Assembly: GCA_964629805.1 (NCBI GenBank)
Contig: CAZVTW010000001.1
Coordinates: forward strand, 1 to 51,786
Source of the DNA: an uncultured Bacteroidales bacterium
Lineage (GTDB): Bacteria; Bacteroidota; Bacteroidia; Bacteroidales; CAZVTW01
Direction of reading: 5' to 3'
Length of the DNA stretch: 51,786 bases
The translations under genes were made by a program, and so were the position numbers. This document shows, one piece after another, positions 18,399 to 51,140 of this stretch (position 1 is its first letter; every line of letters starts with the position of its first letter). Below the pieces are notes generated by a model. That model saw only the letters and a list, made by a program, of their open reading frames with translations, searched no databases and had not been told where the DNA came from.

Positions 18399-18411
18399 TT
18401 AACTATCAATT

Positions 18412-18571
18412 AACTTTTAAAAACCCTCTTGTTCTGAAATCGGCGATACGAGGATACCGCACCAAAGGTCAATATGCCACAACTTGTCTCTCGACTAAGT
18501 TGATAGAAGGCTTTCTGGCCTGGCAGGTGAAGCTTATATACCGGAAAGCCTGCCGCAAAAGGTTTTTTCAT
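18412..18571. repeat. MITE-like repeat, degenerate copy G
   Basis: It contains CTTGTCTCTCGACTAAGT (core), GAAGCTTATATACCGGAAAGCCTGCC (compare copy F AAGGCTTATCTTACCGGA and AAGCCTGCC) and AAAAGGTTTTTTCAT (truncated right terminus). The boundaries are approximate. Confidence 0.45.
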
Positions 18572-18655
18572 ATCAGTTTAGCTACGAAGGTACAAATAAA
18601 ATATGATTTTTTAAAAAATATTTACCAACAGGTAGGTACTGTCATGTTATTTTTG

Positions 18656-18663
18656 TATATTTG
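18656..18663 (+). promoter_or_regulatory. Candidate -7 box TATATTTG for the MFS transporter gene
   Basis: It matches TAnnTTTG and ends 38 nt upstream of the ATG at 18701. Confidence 0.35.
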
Positions 18664-18700
18664 CGTCATATCCATGACTCATTTATCATCATTAAACACT

Positions 18701-22074: not shown

Positions 22075-22078
22075 GTGT

Positions 22079-35300: not shown

Positions 35301-36565
35301 CAAGGGTATTGGTTTCCGGACCGCATCCGGAAAATGAGCTTATCAAAATGAACAGTGATTCGGTTTTAATTAACTCATATGTCTATAATGACATTAAAGA
35401 CGGATTATTTATCCATATGAAGGTAAAAGATGAAGGTATTGGTGTATCTGAAGAAAACATAAAAAATATTTTTGAACGATTTCATCAAATTGAAAATTCT
35501 AAAAATGCAAAGTCGGAAGGCACAGGAATTGGTTTATCCCTGGTAAATGAACTTGTTAAAATCCTGAAGGGGATGCTTTTTATAAAATCACAAACCGGTA
35601 AAGGGACTGAAATAAGCGTATATTTGCCTGCAGAAAAACAATTCTATTACAAAGATGAAATTATTAAGCACCCAATCCCATTAGACTATAGTGATCCGGA
35701 AAAAGAAGAAGATGTAATGATGCTTTATACTCAACCGGAGCGGCAACAGGAATTGTTGGAGGATGATAAGGCAGATAGTAGCAATAATTATCCTTTAGTG
35801 GTTGTTATAGAAGACAATAGAGAACTCCTGGATTTTATCGGAAATTTATTAAAAGAGAATAATTACCGCGTTAAAAAAGCTGTTGACGGCAAGGAAGGAT
35901 TCGAAAAAATCAGGAAATTTATACCAGACCTGATAATTTCAGATATTATGATGCCCAGAATGAACGGCATAGACCTTTGTAATAATTTAAAAAAAGATAA
36001 AAACCTCAATCTGATTCCTGTTATTTTATTAACCGCAAAAAATAGTATCGAAAGCGTAAAAGAAGGCTACGAGCAGGGAGCTGACGATTACATTGTCAAA
36101 CCCTTTAATAATGAATTACTTCTAACAAGAATTGATAACCTGATTCAAAGCAGGAAAAAACTCAGGGACAGCCTGAAAAGTGACATAAAAATGCCTTTTC
36201 ATGACGGTGAATTATTAAATAAAGATGAGCAGTTCTTATCATCTGCCTACAAAATTATACAGGATAACCTCACGAATCCTGATTTCACCCAGAGTGAATT
36301 TTGTGAGCACATGAATATGAGTAAATCCCAGTTGTATAAACGATTAAAAGCGCTTACCAATGAATCAATAAATGAGTTTGTCAGAAACATCAGACTGAAA
36401 AAAGCAGAACAAATATTCAGAAAAGTCGAAAACATACCTATATCAGAGGTGGCTTACCTGGTCGGTTTTTCTGATCCGAACTACTTTACCAGGGTATTTC
36501 GTCAATATTTTGGAGAGTCTCCAAAAAAATATATTGAGAATTTAAATAAGGATGAAACAGATTGA
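32351..36565 (+). CDS. Hybrid two-component system (HTCS) sensor kinase/response regulator with AraC-type HTH output
   Basis: 1404-aa ORF with propeller repeats and Y_Y_Y. It has a TM segment (WWAYIVYIMIFCTIFFLY), HisKA (ISHEFKTPLTLILG), HATPase (GTGIGLSLVNE), REC (VVVIEDNREL...IISDIMMPRMNG) and an AraC HTH (VAYLVGFSDPNYFTRVFRQYFGESPKKY). Confidence 0.92.
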   Translation: MKKYMFLICLFCNLQYADASENIQFTTIDQRSGLPSNNIISIYKDSKGFMWFGSVHGLIRYDSRDFIVYKYNPHDSKSISNNEIKAIAEDASGNLWIGTENGLNLYNWNSDDFIKFIPDSSDNKSISNHRIRNFLLDSKGRFWITTREGLNLLTKTENGFSFRSYYPPRTDTSRTSEWSIVTIIEDQDGDIWVGTWGRGLCQFDPVSGKFISYMKEPENPFSIAGNIVEELEQLPNGLIIVGFSGENLQLFDKTTRRFHSANSLPEYRELFKIKGPYYCFETEKPDRLWIGNFKGLQVFDLNKKKIIYDNTLKPRKENQGRPRLTGKDQARVVYKDYTGIIWVGYGGLGIDKYDPNKDKFSKYFVSLKTSEISQDYISDFLYINKNEIWVTTNNGIIKTNTSGTELQRITIDKKKENTGYNTIIQDVTGHLWIGTNQGLVKLNPATGNVVKRIRNHNNEIVLTHNSIINLDHDDDGRFWILTQEGLHNYDPAEERFIENNITRKFGNTKISCVFRDRDNDYWIGTTNGLYVYDTITQNFRLFLPKKNNENSLINRMISSVIQDSGGNIWIATRGGISKYDKRKNSFENFHEKDGLPNTLINRLAEDNEGNIWFSSFGISKIDVKTKLLTNYTEDDGLAPKTHNLLTLKNGQFVTLNEKGFHIFYPDSIRSYHKTPQLYLTGLSIAGRTITPGSPILQGYSLIEAKNIRLNYSQRVINFQFSALNYTLPSKTKYKYILEGYDEKWNNPGTKNNFTLMNLSPGKYTLKVRASNSDGVWSKHDTQLNITVDPPYYLTWWAYIVYIMIFCTIFFLYRYYTIKMERVKSQLKFEKLNAQKEHELDQLKLKFFINISHEFKTPLTLILGLLSHTLKSKSEKTMRSNIQTAIRNALRLKKLINQLLDLRKLDTGKIKPEIRTGDIKKFSEKICSVFNSLAAMQEQKFEFFAEEKDMTVFFDPDKTEKIISNLLANAFKHTKKGGEISLSVTRVLVSGPHPENELIKMNSDSVLINSYVYNDIKDGLFIHMKVKDEGIGVSEENIKNIFERFHQIENSKNAKSEGTGIGLSLVNELVKILKGMLFIKSQTGKGTEISVYLPAEKQFYYKDEIIKHPIPLDYSDPEKEEDVMMLYTQPERQQELLEDDKADSSNNYPLVVVIEDNRELLDFIGNLLKENNYRVKKAVDGKEGFEKIRKFIPDLIISDIMMPRMNGIDLCNNLKKDKNLNLIPVILLTAKNSIESVKEGYEQGADDYIVKPFNNELLLTRIDNLIQSRKKLRDSLKSDIKMPFHDGELLNKDEQFLSSAYKIIQDNLTNPDFTQSEFCEHMNMSKSQLYKRLKALTNESINEFVRNIRLKKAEQIFRKVENIPISEVAYLVGFSDPNYFTRVFRQYFGESPKKYIENLNKDETD

Positions 36566-36607: not shown

Positions 36608-36677
36608 ATGAGTCCACTCCGGTGAGTCCATTTGTCGCCAAATTCTTCGTTATAACATTTCTTAGAAGTTGGCTCAT
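36608..36677 (+). repeat. MITE-like repeat, mini copy C (70 nt)
   Basis: ATGAGTCCACTCC...CATTTGTCGCCAAATTCTTCGTTAT...TTCTTAGAAGTTGGCTCAT. The termini match at 10/13 positions. The interior matches the CATTTGTCACCAA..ACGTTAT segment of copy B. The right terminus contains the TGA stop of CDS 36674..39214. Confidence 0.7.
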
Positions 36678-39214
36678 TTTATTTTTAAAAATTTAGCGAT
36701 TCTTTGATGCTTCCGGCTCATTGTCTTAACCAGATATAAACCATTTCGAAGCCCCGAAACATCAATTCTTTCACCCGGCATTATCATCCTGATGTTGAAT
36801 TCAGAAACAACTTCTCCATGTACATTTACAATTTGAATCAACTCTGTGTCTTTATTATCTATTGAGATAAATTCAATTGCCGGATTTGGGAACACTTTTA
36901 GTCGGGGGATGGATTTTTCGCTTGTTTCAAAAACAGAACTGGCAGTATCTGTTTTGTTTTCATTAATTTTTACAGTTGCATATCTTATGATCTTATTGTC
37001 ATTACTGACTTTAATTATTGCTTCTTCAACAGGTTCTGAAGCTACAAATTTACCCGCTTCAAAAAACTCACCGCCTGCACTAACTTCCCAGTCAAGATCA
37101 GGCATTGTTTCCAATTTATTAAAAATATTTTCATACACGTCTACATCAAAAATGAGTGTGTCGCCAACTTCAATCTCAGCACTTTCAGGACTGATTTCAA
37201 TTCGGGTTATTGTGTTCGCGGGACCGGCAATCCAGGGGTCTGAACCAAATTCATAAGAGCCAATATCCGGTGTACCAATTACAACAGAATCATTGTAATC
37301 ATGACTGACTCCTTTGTCAATAAGTATTTTTGCACTTTCCTTTAAACGAAAATCATGATTATCAGGATCCATGTAAAGATCATATAGTTCTTTTTTTTCA
37401 GAAACAAATTCACAACTGTCAATTTCAGCCAGGTTAAGTTTTCCTCCCCAGCCGGCAGAAACAATATTATTCTTTAAATAAATTTGATCACCATTATCAT
37501 TTCTAAATGCACTTCCAAACCCCGGGCGGGATAAGTTTGAATTCAATGCAAGATTATTGTAGACTAAATGTTTTCCTATCACCTCATGGTATCTGTTTAA
37601 AACAATCGGCCCATCTACATTACTGATAATATTATGATCAATGATTGTGTTACCGCCAAAATCGAAATAAATACCATTGGCTAATTTGTTTGTACCATTT
37701 AAAATAATATTGTGATCAACCCTTATGTTGGTCCAGTCACGTCCGGCGCTGGCATTCAGTGCTCCGCCATCATGGGATCGTAGCATAAAACCATCCACAA
37801 TATTATGATGAATCCTTGCTTTACCAGGGTGTTTTTCTGGTTCAGTGTTATAAATGCTATTGATACTTATAGCCATATGCGGTGTATTATAAAAATAGTT
37901 GTAGGAAATTTCCGGGTCCCTGAGCCTGCATTTCCTGCCAGAATTAATCACACCAGCTTCGGAAACCAGGTAATTAATATGATAAAATGAGTTCCCAATG
38001 ATTTTCATATTATCTCCAATCGGAGAAATTGCAGAAGCTGCACTGTAATCAAATTCACAATTACTAACAGTATGACCAACACCGCTTAAAACCAGACCAG
38101 AACGCTGAGCAAAAATATTCGCGGAAAGATTCTCGTTCTTATTTGTTGCATGGTAGATATATTTGAATTTGATGCTGTCAATTAAAAAATTATAACAATC
38201 CTCAGCAGCAGATTCCCTGTTTTCAAACCCCAATTCAGTGCAAATGCTTGCAGCAAATATTTCAAATCCTTTTATAGTGATGCCATGGTAATTTTGTCCG
38301 GTTTCGGCAGGTGCAAAAGCCCATACACGCTTCTTAACCTCTATTAGATTAGTCTCATCAATAGTTTCTGCCGGAGCTTCTCCGTCTGGCAATCTTACAA
38401 ACAAAGTATCGCCGTTTTTCCACCATTCGCCCCTTGACAGAATTTGTTGAGGGCCTCCGGTTTCGTATACTCCATCGGCCGAAGGATTACAAAGGTAAAA
38501 CTCGGTACCCGGGCCAAGCCCAAAATTTCCATTATTCACCTTTAAATCAGTCCATCCGCTTTCGTCAACTACCTTAATTTTGTTTTGCGATTGCGAAATA
38601 AATGTAACATCTCCTGTCCAGCCTGAACCATCATGTCCGTTACGGGCAATATTAAGCCATACTTTTGAATCTGTCCAACGTGCTGCCGGTTCATCAAAAT
38701 CACTTTCTATAAGATAAACCCCGGTTGTACCAATATCTTCTACTTTGTCTGCTTTTGCGACAACCGGATTGGCAACAAAATCATCACTGGTTTCATCTGG
38801 CCAGCGGGCTACATGCAGCATTTTGCCGTCAACAAACACCTGATTGTCCTGGTTGTTTTCGGTTACATCCCAGGGTACAGTAGCTTTATACACTTCATTC
38901 CCCACTTCCTGCCAGTTGAAAACCGGTTCTGAACCACTAATGACCACATTGTCGTCTTCATAAGGCTCAAATGTTATTCCGTTGGCCGAAAATTCAACTT
39001 TTTCACGGTAGGTACCTTCATGAACAAGAATTTTATCACCTTCTGATGCAAAATTTACTGCTTCACGGATAGTTTTGAAAGGGTGCTCTGTGGAGCCGTC
39101 ACGATGCTCACTTTCGCTGTGTTTATCAACATGAATAGTTTGGGCATGAAGACAAACCGTGGTATTTACAAAAATATAAATGATAACTGCTTTTAGTATT
39201 CTAAAATTCATCAT
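36674..39214 (-). CDS. Secreted right-handed beta-helix protein with Big_2-like domain and T9SS C-terminal sorting domain
   Basis: 846-aa ORF with a signal peptide. It has HPFKTIREAVNFASEGDKILVHEGTYRE (beta-helix N-cap) and coil repeats (HHNIVDG, DHNIILNG, DHNIISN). An Ig-like segment (ITRIEISPESAEIEVGDTLIF) precedes the C-terminus LKVFPNPAIEFISI...GLYLVKT (T9SS type-A pattern). Confidence 0.8.
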   Translation of the reverse strand: MMNFRILKAVIIYIFVNTTVCLHAQTIHVDKHSESEHRDGSTEHPFKTIREAVNFASEGDKILVHEGTYREKVEFSANGITFEPYEDDNVVISGSEPVFNWQEVGNEVYKATVPWDVTENNQDNQVFVDGKMLHVARWPDETSDDFVANPVVAKADKVEDIGTTGVYLIESDFDEPAARWTDSKVWLNIARNGHDGSGWTGDVTFISQSQNKIKVVDESGWTDLKVNNGNFGLGPGTEFYLCNPSADGVYETGGPQQILSRGEWWKNGDTLFVRLPDGEAPAETIDETNLIEVKKRVWAFAPAETGQNYHGITIKGFEIFAASICTELGFENRESAAEDCYNFLIDSIKFKYIYHATNKNENLSANIFAQRSGLVLSGVGHTVSNCEFDYSAASAISPIGDNMKIIGNSFYHINYLVSEAGVINSGRKCRLRDPEISYNYFYNTPHMAISINSIYNTEPEKHPGKARIHHNIVDGFMLRSHDGGALNASAGRDWTNIRVDHNIILNGTNKLANGIYFDFGGNTIIDHNIISNVDGPIVLNRYHEVIGKHLVYNNLALNSNLSRPGFGSAFRNDNGDQIYLKNNIVSAGWGGKLNLAEIDSCEFVSEKKELYDLYMDPDNHDFRLKESAKILIDKGVSHDYNDSVVIGTPDIGSYEFGSDPWIAGPANTITRIEISPESAEIEVGDTLIFDVDVYENIFNKLETMPDLDWEVSAGGEFFEAGKFVASEPVEEAIIKVSNDNKIIRYATVKINENKTDTASSVFETSEKSIPRLKVFPNPAIEFISIDNKDTELIQIVNVHGEVVSEFNIRMIMPGERIDVSGLRNGLYLVKTMSRKHQRIAKFLKIK

Positions 39215-39282
39215 GTAATAGATTTTTTACGGTTTAATTCAAAGGGGCCGACCCGTTTAATTTTCTATCAGGAATCAATCTT

Positions 39283-39317
39283 AAAAAATTTCCCCGGGGA
39301 ACGCTCCCCGGGGAAAT
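39283..39317 (-). terminator. Rho-independent terminator after the 1255-aa cargo gene
   Basis: The minus strand reads ATTTCCCCGGGGA-GCGT-TCCCCGGGGAAAT followed by TTTTT. This is a perfect 13-bp GC-rich stem with a 4-nt loop and a T-run, 57 nt after the stop at 39374. Confidence 0.8.
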
Positions 39318-39373
39318 GATAATTGATTACTACTAATATATATCTAACTACTAAAACTATGAAGATTTATCTT

Positions 39374-42300
39374 TTACTTTTTCACGAACCTTGAAACAGA
39401 AAGATTTTTGCCATCATTAATAACCAGAATATAGATGCCGCTTTGAAGGTCTGAAACATTCATTTCACAAGGATTGGTGTTGTTACCGAAATGTTTTTCC
39501 ATTATGAGGATCCGTCCGTCAACTCCGTAAATTGAAATTGAATCTACAGGATTTCCCCTGACAACAAGAATATCACCGGTTGGATTAGGATAAATATCAA
39601 ATACGGCATTCGCATCCATCCTGCTTATACCAACTGTAACAGAAGCGCTTACCTCATTACCTGCAGCAGACTGAATATCATCAGCCGTATAGGCAATAAC
39701 CGAATACGTATAATCACCTGTTGTTAAGCCTGTAACAGCATATGATGTTTCTTCAGTTGTGCCAATCTCTTCTCCACCCTGGAGAATTATGTAACCTGCG
39801 GCATTATCTACAGCGCTCCAGGTTAGAGTAACTGATCCTTCATTCACATCAGCAGCTAAATCATTAACAGGAGAAATTGAAACCTGAGAATCAGTAATTT
39901 CGACATCCACAGCCTCACTGACAGGTGACCAAACTTCACCCTCTCCTAATGCAACAAGTTTAAATTCATATAAATCCTCTTCCAGATCATTTATAGTTGC
40001 TGAAGTTTCTGTCGTTTTAACAGCCATTTCTCCATCCTGTAAAAGTAGATATCCAACAGCATCGGTTACCGCATCCCATGTTACAGAAACGCTGTTTCCG
40101 TTTACATTCACATCAATTACAGGTTGTTCCGGACGGAAATTATATGCTTCAACCGATCCGTCTTCCATCAATTTTATTGAACCAAACCGGTAGGGATCTC
40201 TCCACAATAAATCATTGTCATCATTAAATGCCAGGAAATCACGTGATTCGGAGTTGTCCCGGTCATTTATAATAATGTCAAAACCTAATAGCATTCCTGC
40301 TTCCGGGTTTACATTAATAGAATCGAAGGGAACAGTCCATAGAGTTGTATAACCGGTTCCGGGATTAAGGCTTTCAGTCGGGAATATTTGTGGAGGTTTG
40401 TATGCACCGCTTCCTGCCGGAGCGCCGCCTTGCCATCCCCAAATAACATCTTCGGTGTAACCATGCCCGAAATTATACTGTTCTAAGGTGTACTCGTTCC
40501 CTTTGGCATTTGTGGCATCAATGTATATGTTTGTATTGTCCCTGGCATAATTTGGTGCATCTTCAGATACATCCAGAATATCATCTTTTACATCTATCAG
40601 AACATAAAGATTATCTTCGTCCCACTTCAGTTTAAACCTTCCGCTCAGGTCATCCGGTCCGGTAACTGTTTCGTCAGAAATAACTCTTGAAATATCATAC
40701 CATGTATAATCTTCCCATCCTGCGAATTGATCAGTGGCGATCTCAATGGTTACAGGTTCACTTGCTTCTGATTGAACATTGCCCGTTGCATAAGCCACCA
40801 GGCTAAATTCGTAAACTCCTTTATCAAGGCTAATGGAATACATTGTTTCTTTCGTATCTTCTATGATCTCACCATCTTTAAGAATATAGTAACCTGCCGC
40901 ATTATCAACAGCGTCCCATGTACAGGTAACGCTATTATTTTCTGTTGTTACAGTCAATACAGGTTTCGCAGGTGGATTATTATAAACTTCAACAGCTCCT
41001 CCTTCAACTAATTTAATGGCACCCCAGCGGAATGGATCTCTCCATGCAAGGTCTTGGTTCCCTGTCCATCCCAACATATCTCTGAGTTCTTCACCGTCTC
41101 TGTCGTTAATAATCAATTCTAACCCGATAATTTTACCCTCTTTGACATCAGTAAGGTTCACTTTGTCATAAGGAATAGCAAACTCAACCACATATCCTAC
41201 ACCCTCTTCAACAGTCGAAGCAACAGGAATTTCAGGAGGAAGTGTTTGTCCTCCTTCAGTATTTCCCTGCCATCCTGTTATTACATCACCTATGGTATAC
41301 CGAAAGAAATAACATCCTTCTTCAAACTTTGAAAATTTATCGTTATTCACATCAAGAAATATTTCCACAATATCGTTCAGGAATACAGTTTCTGAACTAA
41401 TATCTAAAATATCATCCTCAACATCGAAAAGAACATACAGAGCTTCATCACCCCAGACAATTTTAGCCTGTCCGCTCAGGTCCTTTTCATTGTCAACGCC
41501 GTCCACATCAATTTCTTTTGCAACAGGTAACCATTCAAAATTATCCCAAAGATTCTCAATTACTCCGTCAATCGTAATACCACTCAAATCAGCTTCCAGT
41601 TCTTCTCCTGTAAAATTAAACGTCCCTGTCGTTCCGGTTTCCCAGGCAGCAGTTTCCCAGGCATGACCACCGGAAACAGAACCGGCCTGTCCGTCTAATG
41701 ACCAGTATGCACGGGTGCGCGGGTTGACTTCGGCAAGGTCTGTGTTATCATTATCATGCACATGAAGTTCAAAACCGAAAGGCACATCTCCTGAAGGATC
41801 AAATACGACTCCGCTTTCGTCTGTTAATCCGGCAAAAGCAACATAGAGTTCGGCCATATATCCGTCATCTGTCAGTGTGATATTCCAGTCAGCATTTCCG
41901 GCCTGCATGTCTTTACACTCCTGTGCAACACCAAATTCATGATCGTCTTTCTTCACCAGCGGGAACGAGTACTGGAAGAAACCATTCATACAGTCATCAG
42001 CAATATCGCCTGGTGTGGCAGTGCCATTACCAATTTTAAAATACGCCTCCAGGACATCATGATACCATGAGGGTTCATCAGGTTGCTGAACGACATCATC
42101 TTTGACATTCACCAGCAGGTAAATACCATCATCATCATAGGTTGCTTTCCATGTGGCTGTTAAATCTTCAGCACTTTCAGGTGCTGCGAGGTTCTCATTT
42201 CCTTCTTTCAGATTGTATTTTGTATTGGTCTGTTCTTCAAAACCACTGAGAGCATTCCAGTCTGATGCATCACCATCAATGGTTATGGAGGTTCCGGCAG

Positions 42301-43054
42301 GAATTTTTTTCAGGGCAAGAGTTTTTGCATTTGCAGCTCCTGAACCTGATGTTGCAAGTACAGCTACATCGTCAGCACTTAAAGCAGCAGAATAAATTCT
42401 TGCATCATCAATTTTCCCGTCAAAATAACCTGAACCACCAAAAGCATCGCTCCAGTTGTACCCTCCTATTGTTGCAGAGTCTCCGTGAGGACCAACAGCG
42501 CTAACATCAGCGTTGGTTTGCTGATCGGCCTGTTCTCCGTTCACATATAAGGTCATGGTACCGGCATTGAAAACCAAAGCCACATGTGTCCAGTCCGTTG
42601 ATGTGAAATCAGTTGAAACAGAAAGTGTAAAACCACCATCCTGATTAGCCTGACCCTGTATTTTATTTTCATTGAGCCTGAGTGCAATACCTTTTGCAGT
42701 TCCTCCTTCTTCAATCAATATCTGGTCCGCTGAAGGATCGGTGGCCCTGAACCACAGAGCCAGGGTACGTTCAGTAAATTCAGCTTTTAATGCATCATAT
42801 TCAACATCAACACGTTGACTACTTGAAGAACTGAGTACCAGGGAATAACTTCCCTCTTTATAATCAGAATTATCAAATACAGGATTCCCTGAAAGGACAC
42901 CATTGTGATTATTCCCACTTTCATCAGCGGCATTGTTTTCAAACTTCCACCAGCCAATCATATTCTCCTGGGCTGATGAATAATAACCTGCAAGCAAAAA
43001 AATGAAGACTGACAGGTATACTTTAAGACAATTTTTTTTCATAATGTTATTCAT
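39374..43054 (-). CDS. Giant T9SS cargo protein: LamG (ConA-like) + CBM9-like module + 2x(CBM9-like + Fn3-like) + Fn3-like + T9SS CTD
   Basis: ORF track 39374..43141 (TTG start). The probable start is MNNIMKKNCLKVYLSVFIFLLAGYYSSAQ (43054 or 43042). A LamG pattern is present (WWKFENN...TLALWFRA...DDARIYSAAL). CBM9-like blocks are present (WKATYDDDGIYLLVNVKDD, VEIFLD, IINDRD..WRDP.R.G.IKL). The C-terminus is FDIYPNPTGD...GIYILVI. Confidence 0.8.
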   Translation of the reverse strand: MNNIMKKNCLKVYLSVFIFLLAGYYSSAQENMIGWWKFENNAADESGNNHNGVLSGNPVFDNSDYKEGSYSLVLSSSSSQRVDVEYDALKAEFTERTLALWFRATDPSADQILIEEGGTAKGIALRLNENKIQGQANQDGGFTLSVSTDFTSTDWTHVALVFNAGTMTLYVNGEQADQQTNADVSAVGPHGDSATIGGYNWSDAFGGSGYFDGKIDDARIYSAALSADDVAVLATSGSGAANAKTLALKKIPAGTSITIDGDASDWNALSGFEEQTNTKYNLKEGNENLAAPESAEDLTATWKATYDDDGIYLLVNVKDDVVQQPDEPSWYHDVLEAYFKIGNGTATPGDIADDCMNGFFQYSFPLVKKDDHEFGVAQECKDMQAGNADWNITLTDDGYMAELYVAFAGLTDESGVVFDPSGDVPFGFELHVHDNDNTDLAEVNPRTRAYWSLDGQAGSVSGGHAWETAAWETGTTGTFNFTGEELEADLSGITIDGVIENLWDNFEWLPVAKEIDVDGVDNEKDLSGQAKIVWGDEALYVLFDVEDDILDISSETVFLNDIVEIFLDVNNDKFSKFEEGCYFFRYTIGDVITGWQGNTEGGQTLPPEIPVASTVEEGVGYVVEFAIPYDKVNLTDVKEGKIIGLELIINDRDGEELRDMLGWTGNQDLAWRDPFRWGAIKLVEGGAVEVYNNPPAKPVLTVTTENNSVTCTWDAVDNAAGYYILKDGEIIEDTKETMYSISLDKGVYEFSLVAYATGNVQSEASEPVTIEIATDQFAGWEDYTWYDISRVISDETVTGPDDLSGRFKLKWDEDNLYVLIDVKDDILDVSEDAPNYARDNTNIYIDATNAKGNEYTLEQYNFGHGYTEDVIWGWQGGAPAGSGAYKPPQIFPTESLNPGTGYTTLWTVPFDSINVNPEAGMLLGFDIIINDRDNSESRDFLAFNDDNDLLWRDPYRFGSIKLMEDGSVEAYNFRPEQPVIDVNVNGNSVSVTWDAVTDAVGYLLLQDGEMAVKTTETSATINDLEEDLYEFKLVALGEGEVWSPVSEAVDVEITDSQVSISPVNDLAADVNEGSVTLTWSAVDNAAGYIILQGGEEIGTTEETSYAVTGLTTGDYTYSVIAYTADDIQSAAGNEVSASVTVGISRMDANAVFDIYPNPTGDILVVRGNPVDSISIYGVDGRILIMEKHFGNNTNPCEMNVSDLQSGIYILVINDGKNLSVSRFVKK

Positions 43055-43087
43055 TTTAATATAAGGTAATAGTAGTTTATAGTAACG

Positions 43088-43144
43088 GCTTGAAACGAAA
43101 TAACCTGTACCTTTTATTCTGTACAGTTTATTTCGCATCAAGCC
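43088..43144 (-). repeat. Hairpin repeat family 2, copy 2 (long imperfect stem-loop between two cargo genes)
   Basis: GGCTTGA-AA-CGAAATAA-C-CTGTAC (loop CTTTTATTCT) GTACAG-T-TTATTTCG-CA-TCAAGCC. 21 of 24 stem positions pair. It lies between the stop at 43163 and the start at 43054. Confidence 0.6.
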
Positions 43145-43162
43145 CTAAGTAGAAATGATGTA

Positions 43163-44233
43163 TTACAGTTTTATTATTTTAGTTGTGCTATCTAATTCAT
43201 TATCTTGATATAAACCAAGAATATATATTCCTTTTTCATATCCTGATATATCAACTTGCTTTTTCCCTTGTACTTCAAAATCATCTATTAGTTTGCCGAG
43301 GATATCATATACCCTGATATGAGAAATATCACCTTTAATATTAAGCATATTAATAACGGGATTAGGATATACCCCTGTATTACTGGCAGTAACAGCAGGA
43401 ATACCTACCAGGGCAGAATTATTAAGTTCGGTTGCAGAAAATGTAATTGTACCAATATTTCCTGTTCTCCAGGCATCAGCTTCCCAGGCATGGCCTCCTG
43501 TAGCGCTTCCGGGTTGACCATCAAGCGACCAATACGATCTTGTTCTGGGATTTACCTCGGCATAGTCGGTATTATCATTATCATGAATGTGAGGCTCAAA
43601 CCAAACTGTGGCATTATCTTCAGGGACAAATGCTTCTCCGTTTTCATCTTTTAATCCTTCAAAAGAGATATACCATTCAATCATGTAGTTGTCAATATCA
43701 ATGGCAGATCCCCAACCTGCACTCCCGGTTTGTATGTCTTTGCAGATTTCGTTAAGGCCCCATGTATATCCCTCAACAACATTCACCGGAAAATCATACT
43801 GATAAATACCATTTGAACAATCATCAGAAATATCACCTTCAATGCCGGCAGGATCGAAATTTCCAATTTTAAAATACATTTCAATCTTATCATGGTACCA
43901 TGAAACATCTGCACCAGGCTCCTGTATCTCATCATCCTGCACAGTAAAGAATCCAAAAATCGCAGTATCATTATACGCTAAATTCCATGAGCTTGAAAGA
44001 TCATAGTTGTCCGTTGGTGCAACAAGGTTTTCATTACCTTCTTTGGTATGATAAATGGTGTTTGACTGGTCCTCATCAAAACCGCTACTTGTACTCCAGA
44101 AGTCATCTTTGCTTCCGTCAATATTAATAGTACTGCCTTCTGGTATTTTATACACTGTCAGGCTTCTTTGTGCCAACAAAACATTGGACACCATAAAAAA
44201 AACAACAGAACTGAGTAAAAAAAATTTTTTCAT
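43163..44233 (-). CDS. CBM9-like sugar-binding protein with T9SS C-terminal sorting domain
   Basis: 356-aa ORF with signal peptide MKKFFLLSSVVFFMVSNVLLAQ. It is paralogous to aa ~275-515 of the 1255-aa protein (SWYHDKIEMYFKIGN; HIHDNDNTDYAEVNPRTRSYWSLDGQPGSATGGHAWEADAW). The C-terminus is GVYPNPVINMLNI...GIYILGL. Confidence 0.8.
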   Translation of the reverse strand: MKKFFLLSSVVFFMVSNVLLAQRSLTVYKIPEGSTINIDGSKDDFWSTSSGFDEDQSNTIYHTKEGNENLVAPTDNYDLSSSWNLAYNDTAIFGFFTVQDDEIQEPGADVSWYHDKIEMYFKIGNFDPAGIEGDISDDCSNGIYQYDFPVNVVEGYTWGLNEICKDIQTGSAGWGSAIDIDNYMIEWYISFEGLKDENGEAFVPEDNATVWFEPHIHDNDNTDYAEVNPRTRSYWSLDGQPGSATGGHAWEADAWRTGNIGTITFSATELNNSALVGIPAVTASNTGVYPNPVINMLNIKGDISHIRVYDILGKLIDDFEVQGKKQVDISGYEKGIYILGLYQDNELDSTTKIIKL

Positions 44234-44320
44234 AATTACATGTTTTTAGTTATTAGACTTAAAGTTAGTGAAAGAATTTCGCTATTAAATTGAAAAGTTT
44301 AGATTTAACCCGTTTATATT

Positions 44321-44473
44321 ATGAGTCTGCTCCGAAAAATCCTGTTTTTGTCTCTGAGCAGAGCTTAAAGCCTGCCCTGTATATAAAAATGTCAGGTGCA
44401 TTCATCATGCAACCTGAGTCTTAACAAATAACCAAGCAGGCACAAGCAAAAAGGTTTTCAGGAGCAGACTCAT
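44321..44473. repeat. MITE-like repeat, copy E (153 nt)
   Basis: The left end ATGAGTCTGCTCC-GAAAA and the reverse complement of the right end ATGAGTCTGCTCCTGAAAA share their first 13 nt exactly. The interior has TTTGTCTCTGAGCAGAG and AAGCCTGCCC, shared with copies F and G. It sits between susD and the first cargo gene. Confidence 0.8.
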
Positions 44474-44483
44474 AAGTGTTGTA

Positions 44484-46046
44484 TTAATAATTCGGATTTT
44501 GTTTCAAATTCGGATTCAGGTCAATGTCATTTCGTGGTATGGGTAAATACTCGTTTTGATTTTCTGTAAAATATTTCCCCACCTTTTCAAAAGACTCTTT
44601 CAGTTTGCCCTGTCTTTTGATATCATAGAAGCGCACTGCTTCTCCGCATAGTTCCACCCTTCGTTCGTGCCATATGGCTTGTAACAGTTCCTGTCCTGAG
44701 GCTGTGACATCAGGCAACACATCAGGATTACCCTGTCGTGCACGTTCTCTGACCATATTGAGCGATTCACGGGCAATGTCTTCTTTATTGGTGTAATAGG
44801 CGGCTTCAGCATTATACAGGATTAAATCAGAATACCTGAAAATTTTAGCATTTAACTCAGTGCCAAAACCTCCCGGTTGTTTGTTGAGCCAGTATTTCTT
44901 CATATAATATCCTGTCGGGGTATCATCCAGCCAGACAGGTAAGCTGTCATTCTCAGGATCTTTAGATGTACCAAGTGGGACGATATCGCCTTCACGCCAT
45001 ATTGAGTATTGCAGGCGGGGGTCTTCCCAACTGTCAGTTGTTTCAAATTCATCTGCCAAATCCTGGGTGGGACAGTTAAGACCCCAGCCCCAGCCACCTC
45101 CCCTGGAGCCGTCGGGAAGGGTAACAAAACGGGGATAAGTATAGGTAACAAAGGAATTTGACTCACTTGTCTCGCCTATATAAACAACTTCAAATATTGT
45201 TTCTTCGTTAAAATCATTCCCTTCCATCCAGATTTCATTATAATTCTGCAACAGCTTATATTCACCGGCATATTCTCCTCTTATCAGTGTATTTGAAAGT
45301 TCAAAGGCCTCCTGCCAGTTGGGATGACCGGCATCTGTGCCGGCTTCAAATACCAGCACATTGGTGAGCAAATACATGGCTGTTCCTCTTTTGGCCCGAC
45401 CAATGTCAGTACCGTCATTCAGCGGTAAATCCGGAATTATACTGCGCAGTTCATCTTTGATGAATTTAAACACCTCTTCTTCTGTTGATTTGGCCATTTT
45501 ATATTCTTCCGGTGAAAGTACATGATCTACCAGAGGTACTGCACCCCAGTTCTTAACCAAAAATGAATAATGATAAGCCCTTAAAAATTTGGCTTCGGCA
45601 ATCATACGTTTCTTTACATCCACCGTTGAGAATTTTTCATCTTCAATGGCTTCTATTTTTTCAATGGCCTGGTTGGCACGCCATATGCCGGCATAATAGA
45701 ATTCCCAATAATCATCAATATTGGGATTATCAGGAGATAAATCATTGATTGTCACCTGCTCACGTTCAACCTGTTCACTGCCGTCAGGATTTCCTCCCAT
45801 AAAAGCATCATCTGAACGCATGTCGCCTAAGGTGTGATGAACATCCCAGAAATTAATTGGCCAGCCGGCATGAAATATATCATAACAGGCAGTTAATATT
45901 TTGTTGGCCCGTTCTTCCGTATTGTAATACGATACATCTGTATAAGTGGCCTCTTCCTGAAGATCAAGATAATCTTCACAGGAAAAAAGAAAAACGGCCA
46001 CACAAAAAATCATGATATGTATTAATCTGCTTTTCATTTTGATCAT
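44484..46046 (-). CDS. SusD/RagB-family nutrient-binding outer-membrane lipoprotein
   Basis: 520-aa ORF with lipobox FLFSC (the start may be Met4 at 46037). It has SusD-like blocks (RAYHYSFLVKNWGAVPL, ERRVELCGEAVRFYDIKR) and lies 34 nt downstream of the susC homologue. Confidence 0.9.
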   Translation of the reverse strand: MIKMKSRLIHIMIFCVAVFLFSCEDYLDLQEEATYTDVSYYNTEERANKILTACYDIFHAGWPINFWDVHHTLGDMRSDDAFMGGNPDGSEQVEREQVTINDLSPDNPNIDDYWEFYYAGIWRANQAIEKIEAIEDEKFSTVDVKKRMIAEAKFLRAYHYSFLVKNWGAVPLVDHVLSPEEYKMAKSTEEEVFKFIKDELRSIIPDLPLNDGTDIGRAKRGTAMYLLTNVLVFEAGTDAGHPNWQEAFELSNTLIRGEYAGEYKLLQNYNEIWMEGNDFNEETIFEVVYIGETSESNSFVTYTYPRFVTLPDGSRGGGWGWGLNCPTQDLADEFETTDSWEDPRLQYSIWREGDIVPLGTSKDPENDSLPVWLDDTPTGYYMKKYWLNKQPGGFGTELNAKIFRYSDLILYNAEAAYYTNKEDIARESLNMVRERARQGNPDVLPDVTASGQELLQAIWHERRVELCGEAVRFYDIKRQGKLKESFEKVGKYFTENQNEYLPIPRNDIDLNPNLKQNPNY

Positions 46047-46080
46047 ATTTTAATTTTTAACTTTTTTTTGTTTTTTTTTA

Positions 46081-49000
46081 CTACAATGAGATATTCAGAC
46101 CCAGAATATAAGTGCGCGGATGTGGATATGTGGCTGCATCTACACCAAAATCAAGCGGATGTGGATTCCACCCGACAGAACTTCCGACTTCAGGCTCTAA
46201 CCCGGTGTATTTTGTAAAGGTATACAGGTTTTCTATGGTCGCATACAACCTGATTCGTTTCATTTTTATCCGGTTTAATATATTATCACCAAAGCTGTAT
46301 CCAATGGTCAGATTGCGTATTCTCAAATATGAGGCATCTTCGATATAAAAATCAGAAAAACGATCAAGATTTTTACTCTTGTTTTTCCCGATACGCGGAT
46401 ATGAGGCATCGCGGTTATCTTCGGTCCAATAATTGAAATCTGCTGAACGGTTGACATATAAAATATCATTATATAAATAATACTTCATTTTGTTCATCAC
46501 ATCTATTCCCTGTACACCACTTAAGCTCATAAACATATCAAATCCTTTGTAATCAAGATTAAGATTGAATCCATAGGTAAAATCAGGTAAAGGACTTCCT
46601 ATAAAGGTTTTGTCATCATCATTAATTTCTCCGTCTCCGTTAATATCCCTGTATTTAAAATCTCCGGGTGCTGTATATTTGAGGGGATTAGGTTCAAGGC
46701 TCCGGTCGTCTGTATACGGGTCCTCTGTACCCTGGTCGGCATGAGCGGCTATTTCATCATAATCCTGAAAAATTCCTTCTGTGATGTATCCGTAAAAACC
46801 GGCTACTGATTCGCCTTCCTTTGTATAGGACATGTACCCGAACTTGCTGTCATTGTTTGAGGGAAGTATTGTATTTTCTCCCGGCAGGTCTACAACTTCA
46901 TTTTTAACAACAGATATATTTCCGCCAAGGTTAAATCGAACCGGACCTATTGATGATTTATAATCAAGCTTCATCTCAAGACCTTTATTGTTCAGGTCAG
47001 CAATGTTTGCAAAAGCAGATGGCTGAGCCCCCCCGACACGTTCAAGATTATGTACACCGGTGAACTTGGGTACAGGCATTTGCATTAATAAATCGCTGGT
47101 CAGTTTATCAAACACATCAACAGAACCTGACAGTTTCGAACCCCATAGCCCGAAGTCTAATCCAACATTGGTCTGTTTGGTGGATTCCCATTTTATGTAT
47201 TGATTGCTTACCCCGTTCGGTAACAATCCGACTAATACTTCGCGATTGGGTCCAAAGCCGTAGTTGTTACCCTGGCTATACAAAGAAGTTGAGTATTGAT
47301 ACGGCGGAATAGACTGATTTCCCAGTTTTCCCCAGCCGGCACGAACTTTTAAGAAATCGACAAAACCGATATTTTTTATAAAATCCTCTTCTGACAACTT
47401 GTAGCCTGCTGAAAATGAAGGGAAAACACCCCACCTGTTTTCCGGCCCGAATTTTGACGAGCCATCGCGGCGGATACTGGCTGTCAGGTGTATTTTGCCA
47501 TCATAATTATAGATGACACGACCTAACTGGGATAATAATGAATAAGCCATTGGAGAACTTTCAGGCGGACTCACTCCGTCAATAGTCGGCACATTGGGAT
47601 AGCGCATAAATTCCTCATCATACGGAAATGGCTTGAAATGCAAACGCATATCAACAAATGTCTCTTTTTGCGCTGTAACAGCTCCCATGACCGTCAAATC
47701 ATGACTGCCGAATGTTTTTTGATAAGTAAGTATATTCTCAACATCCCAGTTAATCCATCTTTCATGACGCTTATAAAATTCATTCTGGTCACGCCTGTCA
47801 ACAGGGTTTATCTGGTAACGGGGATTAAATTGTTCCATATCGCCGTTGGTTATATCAATACCTACGATACTCCTGAAATTTAAAAACGGGAACAACTGAA
47901 AATCAACAAAGGCATTACCAAAATAATGGTAACTTTCATAATTATAAATATCAAGGTCTATGGTAGCAACCGGATTTCGCACATTTGAGGTACGATACAA
48001 ATCAGTCCATATCTGGGTAGTATCGTTTAAATAGGATAATGTAGCAGGGTCTGTGATGTCTGCTACATAGGGTTCAATACTGGGGTCTGCAAGAAGAGCA
48101 CCAGAGACCACATTCCCCAAACCTGCGCCTTCCATAACACGTTTCCTGTTTGAACGGGTGACAATAAACTGTTCCCCGAATTTTATCTTGTTGCTTAATT
48201 TATGCTCGCCGTTAAAACGGATCGAAAATTTATCATAACCGGAGGATTTTACCAGACCTTCCTGTTTAAAATAGGAAGCACTGAACAGATATGTATTTTT
48301 CTCACTTCCGCCAGATATCGTAAATTTGTATTTCTCCTTGTCGGCAGGCGTGAACACTTCTTCCTGCCAGTTGGTCTCACTAAGCGCAGTCCCGGGCTCA
48401 AAACCGGCAAAAGTGTCACGCCCCAGGATACCCTGTAACTCATTGGAAAAATCACGATACCGACCAGCGGACATCATATCAAGTTCTCGTGCCTGGGTTT
48501 GAACACCTTTATATATGTTAATATCTACTCGTGCCTTCCCTGCTTTACCTTTTTTTGTGGTGATTAAAACTACCCCGTTGGCTCCGCGTGCGCCATAGAT
48601 GGCTGCAGCTGAGGCGTCTTTGAGGACTTCAATGGACTCTATGTCATTGGGGTCAAGAAACGATATCCCGGATTTGTTATCGGGAATGTTGCCGTCTTTC
48701 TTGCCAAAACTTTGATCACCCATAATGATACCATCGACAACATACAAAGGCATTGTACCCGAATTCAGTGTCGCCATACCCCTGATGCGTACAGTCATGG
48801 AGGAACCGGGCGATCCTGTATTGTTGATCACTTCAACCCCGGCAGCACGACCTTTTAATGCATCATCAACGCCAAGGGCAGCTATGTCCTTAAAATCTTC
48901 ATTTGAAACCGAAGCCAGTGCACCGGTTAAATCAGACTTTTTTGTCGTTCCGTAACCAATCACAACAACTTCCTGGATATCCTGAACTTCTTCATCAAGC

Positions 49001-49290
49001 TTCAGGTTAATAACAGGGCGGGAATCAACAGGAACTTCCTGTTTCCTATAACCTACACTGGTGAAAACAAGGATGGCATCCTTGCTACTGACGGTAATAG
49101 TATAATTACCGTCAAGATCCGTAATTGTGCCGTCGCCGGTTCCCTTTTCTATGATGTTGACCCCGGGGATGGGCCAGTCGTTTTTAGATTCCGAAACATT
49201 CCCGGTTACTGTGAACCCGTCCTGGCTATAACCCGTCATATGTTGTAAAAAAAACGCTGCAAAGAATAGTAATGTTAGATGTATTTTCAT
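46081..49290 (-). CDS. SusC/RagA-family TonB-dependent outer-membrane transporter
   Basis: 1069-aa ORF. It has a CarboxypepD_reg-like N-domain (GNVSESKNDWPIPGVNIIEKGT), a plug (VVVIGYGTTKKSDLTGA) and a large beta-barrel. There is no STN domain, which fits HTCS rather than ECF/anti-sigma control. Confidence 0.92.
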   Translation of the reverse strand: MKIHLTLLFFAAFFLQHMTGYSQDGFTVTGNVSESKNDWPIPGVNIIEKGTGDGTITDLDGNYTITVSSKDAILVFTSVGYRKQEVPVDSRPVINLKLDEEVQDIQEVVVIGYGTTKKSDLTGALASVSNEDFKDIAALGVDDALKGRAAGVEVINNTGSPGSSMTVRIRGMATLNSGTMPLYVVDGIIMGDQSFGKKDGNIPDNKSGISFLDPNDIESIEVLKDASAAAIYGARGANGVVLITTKKGKAGKARVDINIYKGVQTQARELDMMSAGRYRDFSNELQGILGRDTFAGFEPGTALSETNWQEEVFTPADKEKYKFTISGGSEKNTYLFSASYFKQEGLVKSSGYDKFSIRFNGEHKLSNKIKFGEQFIVTRSNRKRVMEGAGLGNVVSGALLADPSIEPYVADITDPATLSYLNDTTQIWTDLYRTSNVRNPVATIDLDIYNYESYHYFGNAFVDFQLFPFLNFRSIVGIDITNGDMEQFNPRYQINPVDRRDQNEFYKRHERWINWDVENILTYQKTFGSHDLTVMGAVTAQKETFVDMRLHFKPFPYDEEFMRYPNVPTIDGVSPPESSPMAYSLLSQLGRVIYNYDGKIHLTASIRRDGSSKFGPENRWGVFPSFSAGYKLSEEDFIKNIGFVDFLKVRAGWGKLGNQSIPPYQYSTSLYSQGNNYGFGPNREVLVGLLPNGVSNQYIKWESTKQTNVGLDFGLWGSKLSGSVDVFDKLTSDLLMQMPVPKFTGVHNLERVGGAQPSAFANIADLNNKGLEMKLDYKSSIGPVRFNLGGNISVVKNEVVDLPGENTILPSNNDSKFGYMSYTKEGESVAGFYGYITEGIFQDYDEIAAHADQGTEDPYTDDRSLEPNPLKYTAPGDFKYRDINGDGEINDDDKTFIGSPLPDFTYGFNLNLDYKGFDMFMSLSGVQGIDVMNKMKYYLYNDILYVNRSADFNYWTEDNRDASYPRIGKNKSKNLDRFSDFYIEDASYLRIRNLTIGYSFGDNILNRIKMKRIRLYATIENLYTFTKYTGLEPEVGSSVGWNPHPLDFGVDAATYPHPRTYILGLNISL

Positions 49291-49690
49291 AATATGTTAA
49301 AATTAGAAATTAAAATTTCGTGATTCCACTATACAAAGAAAAACAGAGCTTAGGGAATTTATACATGCTATTTCTTATTATGTTAGCAGTTATCCTTTTT
49401 ATAATTATATGTGCTATCTTTTGAACTTATTATGCTGCTGTTTAATCATTTTTATTCACCAAAGCCCCCTTTTTAATATTAAAACTCATATTTTGGCTTT
49501 ACAAGAACACGAGAATAAGATATGAAAAAGTGTTAAATGGATCTTTTTGTAAAAGACGCTGTTTTGCAACTATTTTATCATGCCCGGAATAAGACGCTGA
49601 ACTATCCGCAGAAAAGATATGAACTCCTTATCGAAAAATCCCCTTCTGAATCAGCTATCACCAGTAACAGTAAAAATGAAAACAATTTCA

Positions 49691-49933
49691 CAGGGTTTAC
49701 TCCGTGAAATAACTTCTTTGGAGATTATTTTGAATAATTGTCGAAACAGAGCACTGTTTTCTTAGCAGTAAAATTTTCGTCTCGACTCAGTCGAGATCAA
49801 GCCTGCCCCGTGCAGAGAATTGCGGGGGGCCTTAAGGCTTATCTTACCGGAGTTAACTGTCTGTTAATGACAATTGAAAAATTCTTACCAACGCAGAGTT
49901 TGGCGATAAATGTACATCTATAAGCGAACTCAT
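49691..49933. repeat. MITE-like repeat, degenerate copy F (clear core 49774..49851)
   Basis: The core is TTTTCGTCTCGACTCAGTCGAGATCAAGCCTGCCCCGTGCAGAGAATTGCGGGGGGCCTTAAGGCTTATCTTACCGGAG. The putative degenerate termini are CAGGGTTTACTCCGTGAAA and ..AAGCGAACTCAT. The boundaries are uncertain. Confidence 0.45.
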
Positions 49934-50293
49934 AGATGTTCCACAAAAAAATAACCCAAATAACGCATGATTACTCCAAATTAAGCAGAGTACATTCAGG
50001 AAATTCTTAGTAGAATTGTACACCTTACTTGATTTTAACCTTATTATTTACCGCAAACATATTGATAAAATAAATTATTATCTTCAACCCATTAATATGC
50101 AATAAACAATAGAAATTTAGTAATTTAGAATATTTTAAATGCTTTTTTGTATTTAATATTTTAAATAGCCATTATTTCTAACATAACTTTTGGGACAGGG
50201 TACTAGTAGACTCATTTATATCAAACCAGGACCAATTTTTTCATAAAAAAATAAAACTTACACGTAATAATTATATATTACAATTTTTTTATT

Positions 50294-51140
50294 ATGAAAA
50301 AGTTTATCACATTCTTATTACTGTCACTACTCACACTATGCAAAGCTGTATCCCAGACAGACACTGAATTTTGGTTTGCGGCACCGGAAGTATCATCCGC
50401 ACATGGCGATGAGCCAATCTATTTAAGGATTTCAACGACAAGCCGGCCTGCTGAGGTTTCCGTTTCAATGCCTGCAAATTCAGCTTTTTCCAATATCACA
50501 AAAAAAGTAACAGCTAATTCAACCGTATCAATTGCTTTGACAAAATTCAAAGATGAAATTGAGGGCAGTCCTGCTAATAAAGTATTGAACAAAGGGCTTA
50601 ATATAAAAAGCACATCAGAAATATCATGCTATTATAAAGTGGCAAATGTCTGGAATCCGGCGATTTACCCCTTAAAAGGGAATGTTTGTATTTGTATCAG
50701 CGTCAGATTTACTGCCGGTTGATGCTCTGCAAATGAATTCACACCCCGGATTCGACCGCTTAAGAAGGTATTATGTTTTAACCGAATATAAAATACTAAA
50801 ACAGGAGCAAAATTCCCTGGCAACACTGGTTGGTGGTGATTTTGACTTTGAGCGGGATAATCAGTTCCATATAAGTTTGTTATATAATTATTTATCAACA
50901 ACAGAGAACAAATATGGCCTGGGCCTGTCATACAGGCACACAAATTATAAAAATATACACACCGCTAACAGCGCCATCGTACTTTTACATTTGCAATTCC
51001 AAAATCTGTTACTTGTCTGTCAATACCATATTCACCTTACCAGAGTCCGGCAATATAATTCAGGGACGCATGAAATAAATGTTGGTTTCCGTATTTGTAA
51101 AAAGGCTCATAGCCCCGTTCCGTGCCGGGTTTATTACTAA
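50294..51140 (+). pseudogene. Composite remnant: N-terminal ~125 aa of a large adhesin-like protein joined out of frame to the C-terminal ~150 aa of a PorP/SprF-like protein
   Basis: ORF 50294..50722 has a signal peptide plus TEFWFAAPEVSSAHGDEPIYLRIST...NKGLNIKSTSEISCYY, the N-terminal pattern of big Bacteroidota surface proteins. ORF 50682..51140 in another frame ends ...GLGLSYRHTNY...NSGTHEINVGFRI, a PorP/SprF-type C-terminus. Confidence 0.45.

Follow-up and report, generated by a model that had tools for sequence, protein, structure and literature searches.

Gene content of the locus

The window analyzed here is a 51,786-bp contig of an uncultured Bacteroidales bacterium, assembled from a microbial-mat metagenome, and its subject is a polysaccharide utilization locus (PUL) in which a SusC/SusD pair is followed by three genes whose products carry type IX secretion system (T9SS) sorting domains. 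On the minus strand, five long open reading frames (ORFs) are arranged head to tail, namely susC, susD and three that are referred to as ORF-A, ORF-B and ORF-C, and the coordinates and gene order that a first-pass annotation of this DNA had given for them proved correct:

46081..49290, minus strand: susC-like TonB-dependent transporter, 1069 aa; TIGR04056 873 bits, with TIGR04057, Plug and CarbopepD_reg_2 also matched
44484..46046, minus strand: susD-like lipoprotein, 520 aa; PF07980 130 bits, PF14322; lipobox LFSC
43163..44233, minus strand: ORF-A, 356 aa; signal peptide, divergent CBM9, T9SS type-A sorting domain
39374..43054, minus strand: ORF-B, ~1226 aa when counted from M30 (the listed start is a TTG at 43141); LamG, CBM9 (three modules), Fn3 (three modules), sorting domain
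36674..39214, minus strand: ORF-C, 846 aa; signal peptide, beta-helix with an insert, Ig-like domain, sorting domain

The locus has two features by which PULs are recognized, as susC and susD are adjacent, with 34 nt between them, and are linked to carbohydrate-active enzymes (CAZymes; CBM9 proteins, GH29, GH3, GH97, sulfatases and beta-helix proteins) and to the gene of a hybrid two-component system (HTCS) protein that adjoins ORF-C. Proteins of the window are also present on contigs of ENA ERZ922773 (PRJEB25599) and Logan ERR1878617.

Surface glycan-binding proteins (SGBPs) of the SusE/SusF and SGBP-B type are non-catalytic lipoproteins encoded after susD, built of several domains that are beta-sandwiches or resemble a carbohydrate-binding module (CBM) and held by a lipid anchor on an N-terminal cysteine. 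ORF-A and ORF-B resemble them in being apparently non-catalytic multi-domain beta-sandwich/CBM proteins encoded next to susD, and plausibly play the same role in glycan capture. However, they are not related to SusE/F in sequence, they carry signal peptidase I signals and sorting domains, and they have no lipobox, so that the lipidation expected of an SGBP is lacking. No lipoprotein gene comes next after susD in the window, and a search of the window for a trace of a small post-SusD lipoprotein of the kind present in two related loci (L006 and L008, described below) found none. The earlier proposal that sorting-domain proteins have replaced the SGBP set thus stands for the window, where neither a post-susD lipoprotein nor a remnant of one is seen, but does not extend to the family, as L006 and L008 retain a lipoprotein of ~150 aa.

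Sorting domains and signal peptides

The first-pass annotation had recognized type-A sorting domains at the three C-termini from their sequence pattern and had named hidden Markov model (HMM) searches as the way to check them. All three proteins exceed the curated cut-offs of both relevant models, with PF18962 scores of 46.5, 44.6 and 42.9 bits (cut-off 27) and TIGR04183 scores of 43.9, 44.3 and 30.5 bits (cut-off 23) for ORF-A, ORF-B and ORF-C, respectively. The matches are located at the extreme C-terminus and end no more than 4 residues from the stop codon. None of the 19 other window ORFs matched PF18962 in a Pfam scan, and with a custom sorting-domain HMM applied to every window ORF of 90 aa or longer, only ORF-A, ORF-B and ORF-C match; because no other ORF in the window matches, the occurrence of three consecutive sorting-domain ORFs is not attributable to chance. 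The Ig-like fold of the sorting domain was checked in ORF-C alone, where the modeled tail forms six strands over residues 782-844 and is matched by Foldseek to the beta-sandwich C-terminal domain (CTD) of RgpB (5ag8). The ORF-C family profile additionally matches the CTD structures 8glk and 8glj.

Signal peptides were judged by eye and not by a predictor, and each of the three leaders reads as a Sec signal without a lipobox, in agreement with the earlier description. The apparent cleavage sites are of the signal peptidase I type (LLA/Q in ORF-A, SSA/Q in ORF-B and LHA/Q in ORF-C, where the slash marks the cut), and the complete ORF-A signal peptide is MKKFFLLSSVVFFMVSNVLLA/Q. There is no cysteine in the ORF-A leader, and the sole cysteine of the ORF-B leader precedes the hydrophobic core. 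The ORF-C leader reads ...TTVC-LHA/Q; most ORF-C homologues have the sequence ...A/Q-x-x-[HY]V and none has a conserved cysteine, which argues for cleavage by signal peptidase I. Lipidation of ORF-C at Cys21 was considered and ruled out, because TTVC does not fit a canonical lipobox and the ...A/Q site is conserved among the homologues.

ORF-A and ORF-B appear to be CBM-rich and non-catalytic

ORF-A consists of its signal peptide, a CBM9 module of ~240 aa (residues 23-262) and the sorting domain (residues 288-356, nt 43166-43372). Alone, the protein scores 17.7 bits against Pfam CBM9, under the threshold of 23.4, yet a profile of its relatives matches Xyn10A of T. maritima (1i82), the founding structure of CBM9, with an E-value of 4e-27; this bears out the earlier CBM9-like call, and on sequence comparison ORF-A is a single, divergent CBM9 module. 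Over 234 aa it shares 51% identity with residues 273-501 of ORF-B and can on this ground be regarded as a local paralogue of an ORF-B module. An exhaustive HMMER search with ORF-A returned 320 representative relatives, 6 of them close (E-value of 1e-30 or better). PF06452 is matched by all 29 short relatives; a Pfam scan of 30 short proteins, ORF-A counted in, found PF18962 in 23; and of the 149 best relatives of the module, the custom HMM detects a sorting domain in 109. Since the relatives mostly carry both domains, a protein of ~330 aa made of a signal peptide, a CBM9 module and a sorting domain is a widespread architecture. Word-index searches with ORF-A or with a six-sequence alignment of the module returned almost nothing besides ORF-A itself, and exact-match look-ups of ORF-A and of protein P0005 returned no record. 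A single-sequence AlphaFold model of ORF-A had a pLDDT of 30 and was not used.

ORF-B most likely starts at 43054 (M30) and not at the listed TTG (43141), as the additional 5' stretch coincides with an intergenic hairpin and the close relative P0070 begins at the equivalent methionine. When numbered from the TTG, its modules are LamG (122-260), CBM9a (272-510), CBM9b (520-715), Fn3 (733-801), CBM9c (809-1010), two further Fn3 modules (1011-1083 and 1091-1172) and the sorting domain (1183-1255, nt 39377-39595). Domain matches confirm the LamG, CBM9 and Fn3 modules that had been proposed, with PF06452 (CBM9_1) reaching 253.7 bits across 3 stretches. Judged by these modules, ORF-A and ORF-B both look non-catalytic and CBM-rich.

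ORF-C is a candidate beta-helix enzyme

To describe ORF-C, an AlphaFold model was built from 30 homologues (pLDDT 89.6, pTM 0.86). In this confident model, which supports the predicted beta-helix and Ig-like domain, residues ~26-660 form a right-handed beta-helix that is broken by a beta-sandwich insert, followed by an Ig-like domain at 669-751 and, at 774-846 (nt 36677-36895), the sorting domain. Foldseek ranks the GH141 enzyme BT_1002 first (5mqp; E-value of 4e-16, TM-score of 0.56-0.59 when normalized to the target), followed by the GH120 enzyme XylC (3vst; E-value of 1.5e-13), with a capsule lyase, GH110, PL6 and PL9 further down; the TM-scores of the GH141 and GH120 matches are moderate (0.39-0.59). 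BT_1002 and XylC are, like ORF-C, beta-helices with a beta-sandwich insert, and in the sequence alignment XylC and ORF-C share the same interrupted-helix layout. Their N-terminal caps are clearly homologous (profile E-value of 3e-27, residues 24-115), whereas similarity to the GH141/GH120 enzymes is otherwise confined to one short segment past the insert, so that it covers only the N-terminal ~100 residues and this segment. We describe ORF-C as an enzyme candidate with a modeled GH141/GH120-like beta-helix. Within its family, the acidic residues E263, E292, D482 and D650 are invariant and D518 and D526 nearly so. Residues 397-630 are also matched by PDB entry 9rx2, a 'parallel beta-helix repeat protein' (E-value of 4e-18), for which a literature search found no paper.

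Related loci

Relatives of ORF-C were collected from species-representative genomes, metagenome contigs and exact look-ups and were annotated with phmmer and the custom sorting-domain HMM; a metagenome scan with the six-sequence module alignment yielded 5 loci. In loci L003, L006, L008 and L013, the ORF-C homologue is 34-70% identical to that of the window. The loci that are most informative for comparison have the following gene content:

L006 (Bacteroidaceae metagenome-assembled genome (MAG), 42% identity): HTCS, 1585-aa CBM9 repeat-CTD protein, 526-aa CBM9-CTD protein, ORF-C-like-CTD protein, SusC, SusD, 144-aa lipoprotein, 324-aa CBM9-CTD protein, beta-helix lipoprotein
L003 (70% identity): beta-helix lipoprotein, ORF-C-like-CTD protein, second ORF-C-like-CTD protein, homologue of the 837-aa beta-helix protein of the window, SusC, SusD
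L013: ORF-C-like-CTD protein, HTCS, CBM9-CTD protein, SusC
L084: CBM9-CTD protein, ORF-C-like-CTD protein, 330-aa CBM9-CTD protein
L089 (ENA ERZ1757541 contig_6606, 947 kb), 4245-18876: HTCS, then seven CTD proteins, on one strand

L008 has an ORF-C-like CTD protein beside SusC/D and no CBM9 gene. Sorting domains occur in 17 of the 27 ORF-C homologues from Bacteroidota loci, versus none of the 45 from other phyla (Verrucomicrobiota, Planctomycetota, Abditibacteriota, Armatimonadota, cyanobacteria and others); the lineage has accordingly fitted T9SS tags to a widespread beta-helix enzyme and to CBM9 modules. The tagged genes are often, though not always, placed beside SusC/D and an HTCS: of 23 related Bacteroidota loci, 7 have an HTCS adjoining the cassette, as does L089, and no SusC/D was found within 10 kb of the cassette in L089 or L085. 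In the survey of Bacteroidota loci, a sulfatase is adjacent in 3 of 23 and a GH29 gene in 1 of 23. Sulfatase or GH29 genes stand beside ORF-C homologues in L005, L011, L012, L034, L085 and L091, and L090 has genes with FGE-sulfatase domains.

The coexistence of a small lipoprotein, encoded directly after susD, with CTD proteins is seen in L006. The family to which it belongs comprises proteins of ~145-160 aa (L006, 17900-18334; L008, 3636-4121 and 9366-9854) that match one another with E-values down to 4e-21. The CTD proteins of L089 include CBM9-Fn3, CBM9, ORF-C-like, DUF362, Reg_prop and Fn3-F5/8-typeC types, with a few untagged genes between them.

Intergenic regions, regulator and flanking T9SS gene

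Past the susC-susD junction, the gaps between the five genes measure 250 nt (susD to ORF-A), ~108 nt (ORF-A to ORF-B) and 159 nt (ORF-B to ORF-C). These gaps and the two flanks of the locus contain the following features:

44319..44475 (arms 44319-44346 and 44448-44475), no strand assigned: imperfect inverted repeat of 28 nt, 82% complementary, arms 101 nt apart
43076..43155, minus strand: hairpin in the ORF-A/ORF-B gap, arms of 35 nt, -30.5 kcal/mol, z -5.8, no U-tract
39288..39317, minus strand: hairpin resembling a terminator in the ORF-B/ORF-C gap, 13-bp stem without mismatch, 8 of its pairs G-C, then six U
32351..36565, plus strand: hybrid two-component sensor/regulator with an AraC-type helix-turn-helix (HTH), convergent with ORF-C
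50682..51140, plus strand: C-terminal half (remnant) of a PorP/SprF-family T9SS membrane protein, PF11751 33.2 bits against a cut-off of 22.3, covering positions 155-273 of the 273-position profile

The 250-nt gap contains no ORF, and the fold of its repeat is not significant against shuffled sequences (z -1.8). The hairpin ahead of ORF-C is strong, as the folded 66-nt stretch 39270-39335 reaches -28.9 kcal/mol (z -5.4), and has the textbook make-up of an intrinsic terminator. The Bacteroidetes -7 motif TAnnTTTG is present in none of the internal gaps, and it is not enriched in the window (73 matches versus 67 expected); a sigma-70 promoter scan is uninformative for Bacteroidota. From these features, ORF-A and ORF-B are plausibly transcribed together with susCD; for ORF-C this is uncertain. 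In the ~1 kb upstream of susC (49291-50293) there is no long ORF; the segment contains a hairpin (49685-49710), and its only minus-strand TAnnTTTG is located ~765 nt before the susC start.

The HTCS at 32351..36565 is likely the regulator of the locus. A second HTCS-like sensor is encoded at 23905-27774 on the plus strand; it contains Reg_prop, Y_Y_Y, HisKA, HATPase and receiver domains and, unlike the first, no DNA-binding domain. The PorP/SprF remnant is located ~1.4 kb upstream of susC, and it scores 38.9 bits against TIGR03519, under the cut-off of 90.55, because the gene is a fragment. A 142-aa ORF with a signal peptide and no family match overlaps it upstream, and the region as a whole (50294-51140, plus strand) looks like a deletion remnant. 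The PorP/SprF remnant and the three well-conserved sorting domains together make a T9SS-bearing host likely, although they do not amount to proof.

Comparison with characterized systems

The first-pass annotation had regarded a SusC/D locus with sorting-domain proteins in place of SGBPs as undescribed, and this view is not upheld by the literature. PULs with CAZymes that carry type-A CTDs were named 'hybrid PULs' by McKee et al. 2021, as cited in PMC10792170. The definition applies to the window, as ORF-B (CBM9_1 plus CTD) and ORF-A (CBM9 plus CTD) are encoded within a SusC/D locus. In the Tunicatimonas pelagia PUL CGC19, CBM13-only and CBM32-only CTD proteins are found beside CTD-bearing GH9 and PL6 enzymes (PMC10792170, Table 2), so that, as in the window, CBM-only CTD proteins are located near CTD enzymes in one PUL; it differs in its predicted target (alginate, from PL6), its CBM families and its lineage (Cytophagales), and it is a genomic prediction only.

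An experimental counterpart is the mannan PUL52 of Bacteroides salyersiae, which encodes GH76, GH38 and two large non-catalytic proteins, Bs04081 and Bs04072, with T9SS signals (bioRxiv 10.1101/2022.07.15.500217). Both non-catalytic proteins bound mannan in isothermal titration calorimetry (ITC) or affinity gels, Bs04081 was found with outer-membrane vesicles in the culture supernatant, and the authors explicitly contrast their T9SS non-catalytic proteins with SusE/F-type lipoproteins. PUL52 shares with the window a SusC/D pair and an HTCS, and its key endo- and exo-glycosidases and multi-modular binding proteins have signal peptidase I signals and sorting domains and no lipoboxes. The modules are different, with Big_2, GH76 and GH38 in PUL52 as compared to CBM9, LamG, Fn3 and a GH141/120-like beta-helix in the window, and for PUL52 the substrate is yeast mannan and both binding and vesicle association were measured, whereas the window locus belongs to an uncultured mat bacterium and is known from sequence alone. 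In the chitin locus of Flavobacterium johnsoniae, the classic example with a single enzyme, the depolymerase of a SusC/D locus, which is essential there, also travels via the T9SS; the enzyme ChiA, a PUL-encoded cargo, is fully secreted in soluble form (PMC5127042). It differs from the window in that the enzyme alone is described as T9SS cargo and no CBM-only T9SS proteins are described. The pairing of SusC/D with T9SS cargo is thus already known; the novelty of this locus lies in its lineage and in the modules that it combines.

The window accordingly adds an uncultured microbial-mat example to the small set of PULs with T9SS-exported binding proteins and enzymes, in a combination that is conserved across divergent Bacteroidales MAGs, and it leaves the understanding of PULs or of the T9SS unchanged. 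It also draws attention to two uncharacterized families that can be tested in the laboratory, the ~330-aa signal peptide-CBM9-sorting domain proteins and the large family of GH120/GH141-like beta-helix proteins; the latter occur in several phyla, with the sorting domain in Bacteroidota only.

Proposed function and alternative explanations

We interpret the locus as a hybrid PUL that combines a SusC/D importer with three T9SS-exported proteins, and we assign this reading a probability of about 0.7. The structural part of the first-pass reading agrees with it: a SusC/D pair is followed by three proteins with Sec signals and sorting domains, of which two look non-catalytic and the third is a candidate beta-helix enzyme. 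The proposed mechanism takes its starting point from these sequence features and its individual steps from precedent (PMC5127042, PMC10792170, bioRxiv 10.1101/2022.07.15.500217). ORF-A, ORF-B and ORF-C would cross the inner membrane via Sec and be cut by signal peptidase I at ...A/Q, after which their type-A sorting domains would route them through the T9SS translocon and then be removed. Outside the cell, ORF-A and ORF-B, rich in CBM9, would attach to a glycan polymer that is probably bound in a matrix, ORF-C, with its GH141/GH120-like beta-helix, would cleave this glycan, and SusC/D would import the resulting oligosaccharides. Breakdown would be completed by lipoprotein and periplasmic enzymes encoded nearby (GH29, S1 sulfatases, GH3, GH97, a GH36/31-like enzyme and beta-helix proteins), with expression controlled by the adjacent HTCS. 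For the substrate, a sulfated heteropolysaccharide of the microbial mat that contains fucose is a plausible guess, though a weak one.

Several observations weigh against this interpretation or parts of it. The strong terminator-like hairpin that precedes ORF-C could keep this gene out of a transcript shared with susCD. In related loci SusC/D is a frequent but not an obligatory neighbor, given the cassettes of L089 and L085, and the guess at the substrate is weakened by the only occasional adjacency of sulfatase and GH29 genes. ORF-C could be a hydrolase or a lyase, since PL6, PL9 and a capsule lyase are also among its fold matches. The analysis covered one contig, and the sole T9SS-related gene on it is the PorP/SprF fragment. 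Finally, a GH97 gene, a beta-helix lipoprotein gene and a sulfatase gene look decayed, so that the locus may be partly non-functional or its assembly imperfect.

Where the exported proteins would act is the point on which a variant of the hybrid-PUL reading has to be weighed. Surface delivery of the cargo is inferred, and type-A cargo may be either anchored or released, a distinction that sequence cannot make. The CBM9 proteins might therefore be released, in soluble form or on vesicles, and act remotely on an insoluble substrate instead of serving as surface SGBP equivalents. The full secretion of soluble ChiA in F. johnsoniae and the recovery of Bs04081 on vesicles in the supernatant are precedents for release, whereas P. 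gingivalis attaches its type-A cargo to anionic lipopolysaccharide on the surface (A-LPS; stated in bioRxiv 10.1101/2022.07.15.500217), and a protein such as ORF-A, with one CBM9 module of ~27 kDa, would be of no obvious use if it diffused away. We consider release a genuine possibility, although less likely than not. The most far-reaching form of the anchored alternative combines several proposals: ORF-A and ORF-B would be retained covalently at the surface and cooperate with SusC/D as true SGBP replacements, ORF-C would found a new beta-helix glycanase family, distant to GH120/GH141, for a sulfated mat exopolysaccharide, and the whole would be a conserved, mobile 'capture-and-cut' T9SS cassette that can be plugged into varied SusC/D systems. 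Taken together, these proposals are speculative and we regard the combination as doubtful.

It is also conceivable that the three CTD genes are a T9SS cassette in their own right, for example a secreted binding and degrading set or one for adhesion or biofilm formation, that is uncoupled from SusC/D. Such a cassette would fit L089, with seven CTD proteins beside an HTCS, and L085, both without SusC/D within 10 kb, as well as the shuffled gene order among loci, the hairpin ahead of ORF-C and the 250-nt gap past susD. Nevertheless, the genes adjoin SusC/D in the window, L003, L006 and L013, the five genes of the window share a strand and have internal gaps without a -7 motif, and the adjacency of an HTCS recurs, for which reasons we judge an uncoupled cassette unlikely. 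Still less probable, to the point of being a marginal concern, is a reading in which the locus is in decay or wrongly assembled and its arrangement now serves no function. This would account for the split GH97, the truncated beta-helix lipoprotein at 28129-29397 and the remnants of the sulfatase and PorP/SprF genes, but none of the five core ORFs is broken and all are long (up to ~1226 aa), independent assemblies (ENA, Logan, JGI and NCBI) contain the same proteins, and the sorting domains and the motifs of the catalytic region are conserved among homologues.

Other genes in the window and in non-Bacteroidota loci

The genes near the hybrid PUL include a GH29 fucosidase, two S1 sulfatases, GH3, GH97, a GH36/31-like enzyme and further beta-helix proteins. 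This inventory confirms the two sulfatases, the truncated third (21523-22077), the GH29 fucosidase and the three additional beta-helix genes that had been listed for the neighborhood. The third S1 sulfatase, on the minus strand, retains only its N-terminal ~175 aa, which are 41% identical to the sulfatase at 65-1543. GH97 is divided between two minus-strand ORFs (5969-6940 and 7066-8010) that are ~125 nt apart, one with GH97_N and a lipoprotein signal and the other with the catalytic and C-terminal domains, and this split gene is probably a pseudogene or an assembly frameshift. The Pel9A-like beta-helix lipoprotein encoded at 28129-29397 (minus strand) is truncated to 422 aa, as compared to 741-743 aa in its relatives from L003 and L006 and 687 aa on a sibling contig, and an out-of-frame continuation is present downstream as a fragment (27885-28094, minus strand).

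Members of the ORF-C family in non-Bacteroidota loci (L018-L083), including those of filamentous cyanobacteria, often occur beside paralogous beta-helix genes. Among these loci, 21 of 56 contain relatives of the 422-aa beta-helix protein of the window and 16 of 56 contain relatives of the 671-aa one.

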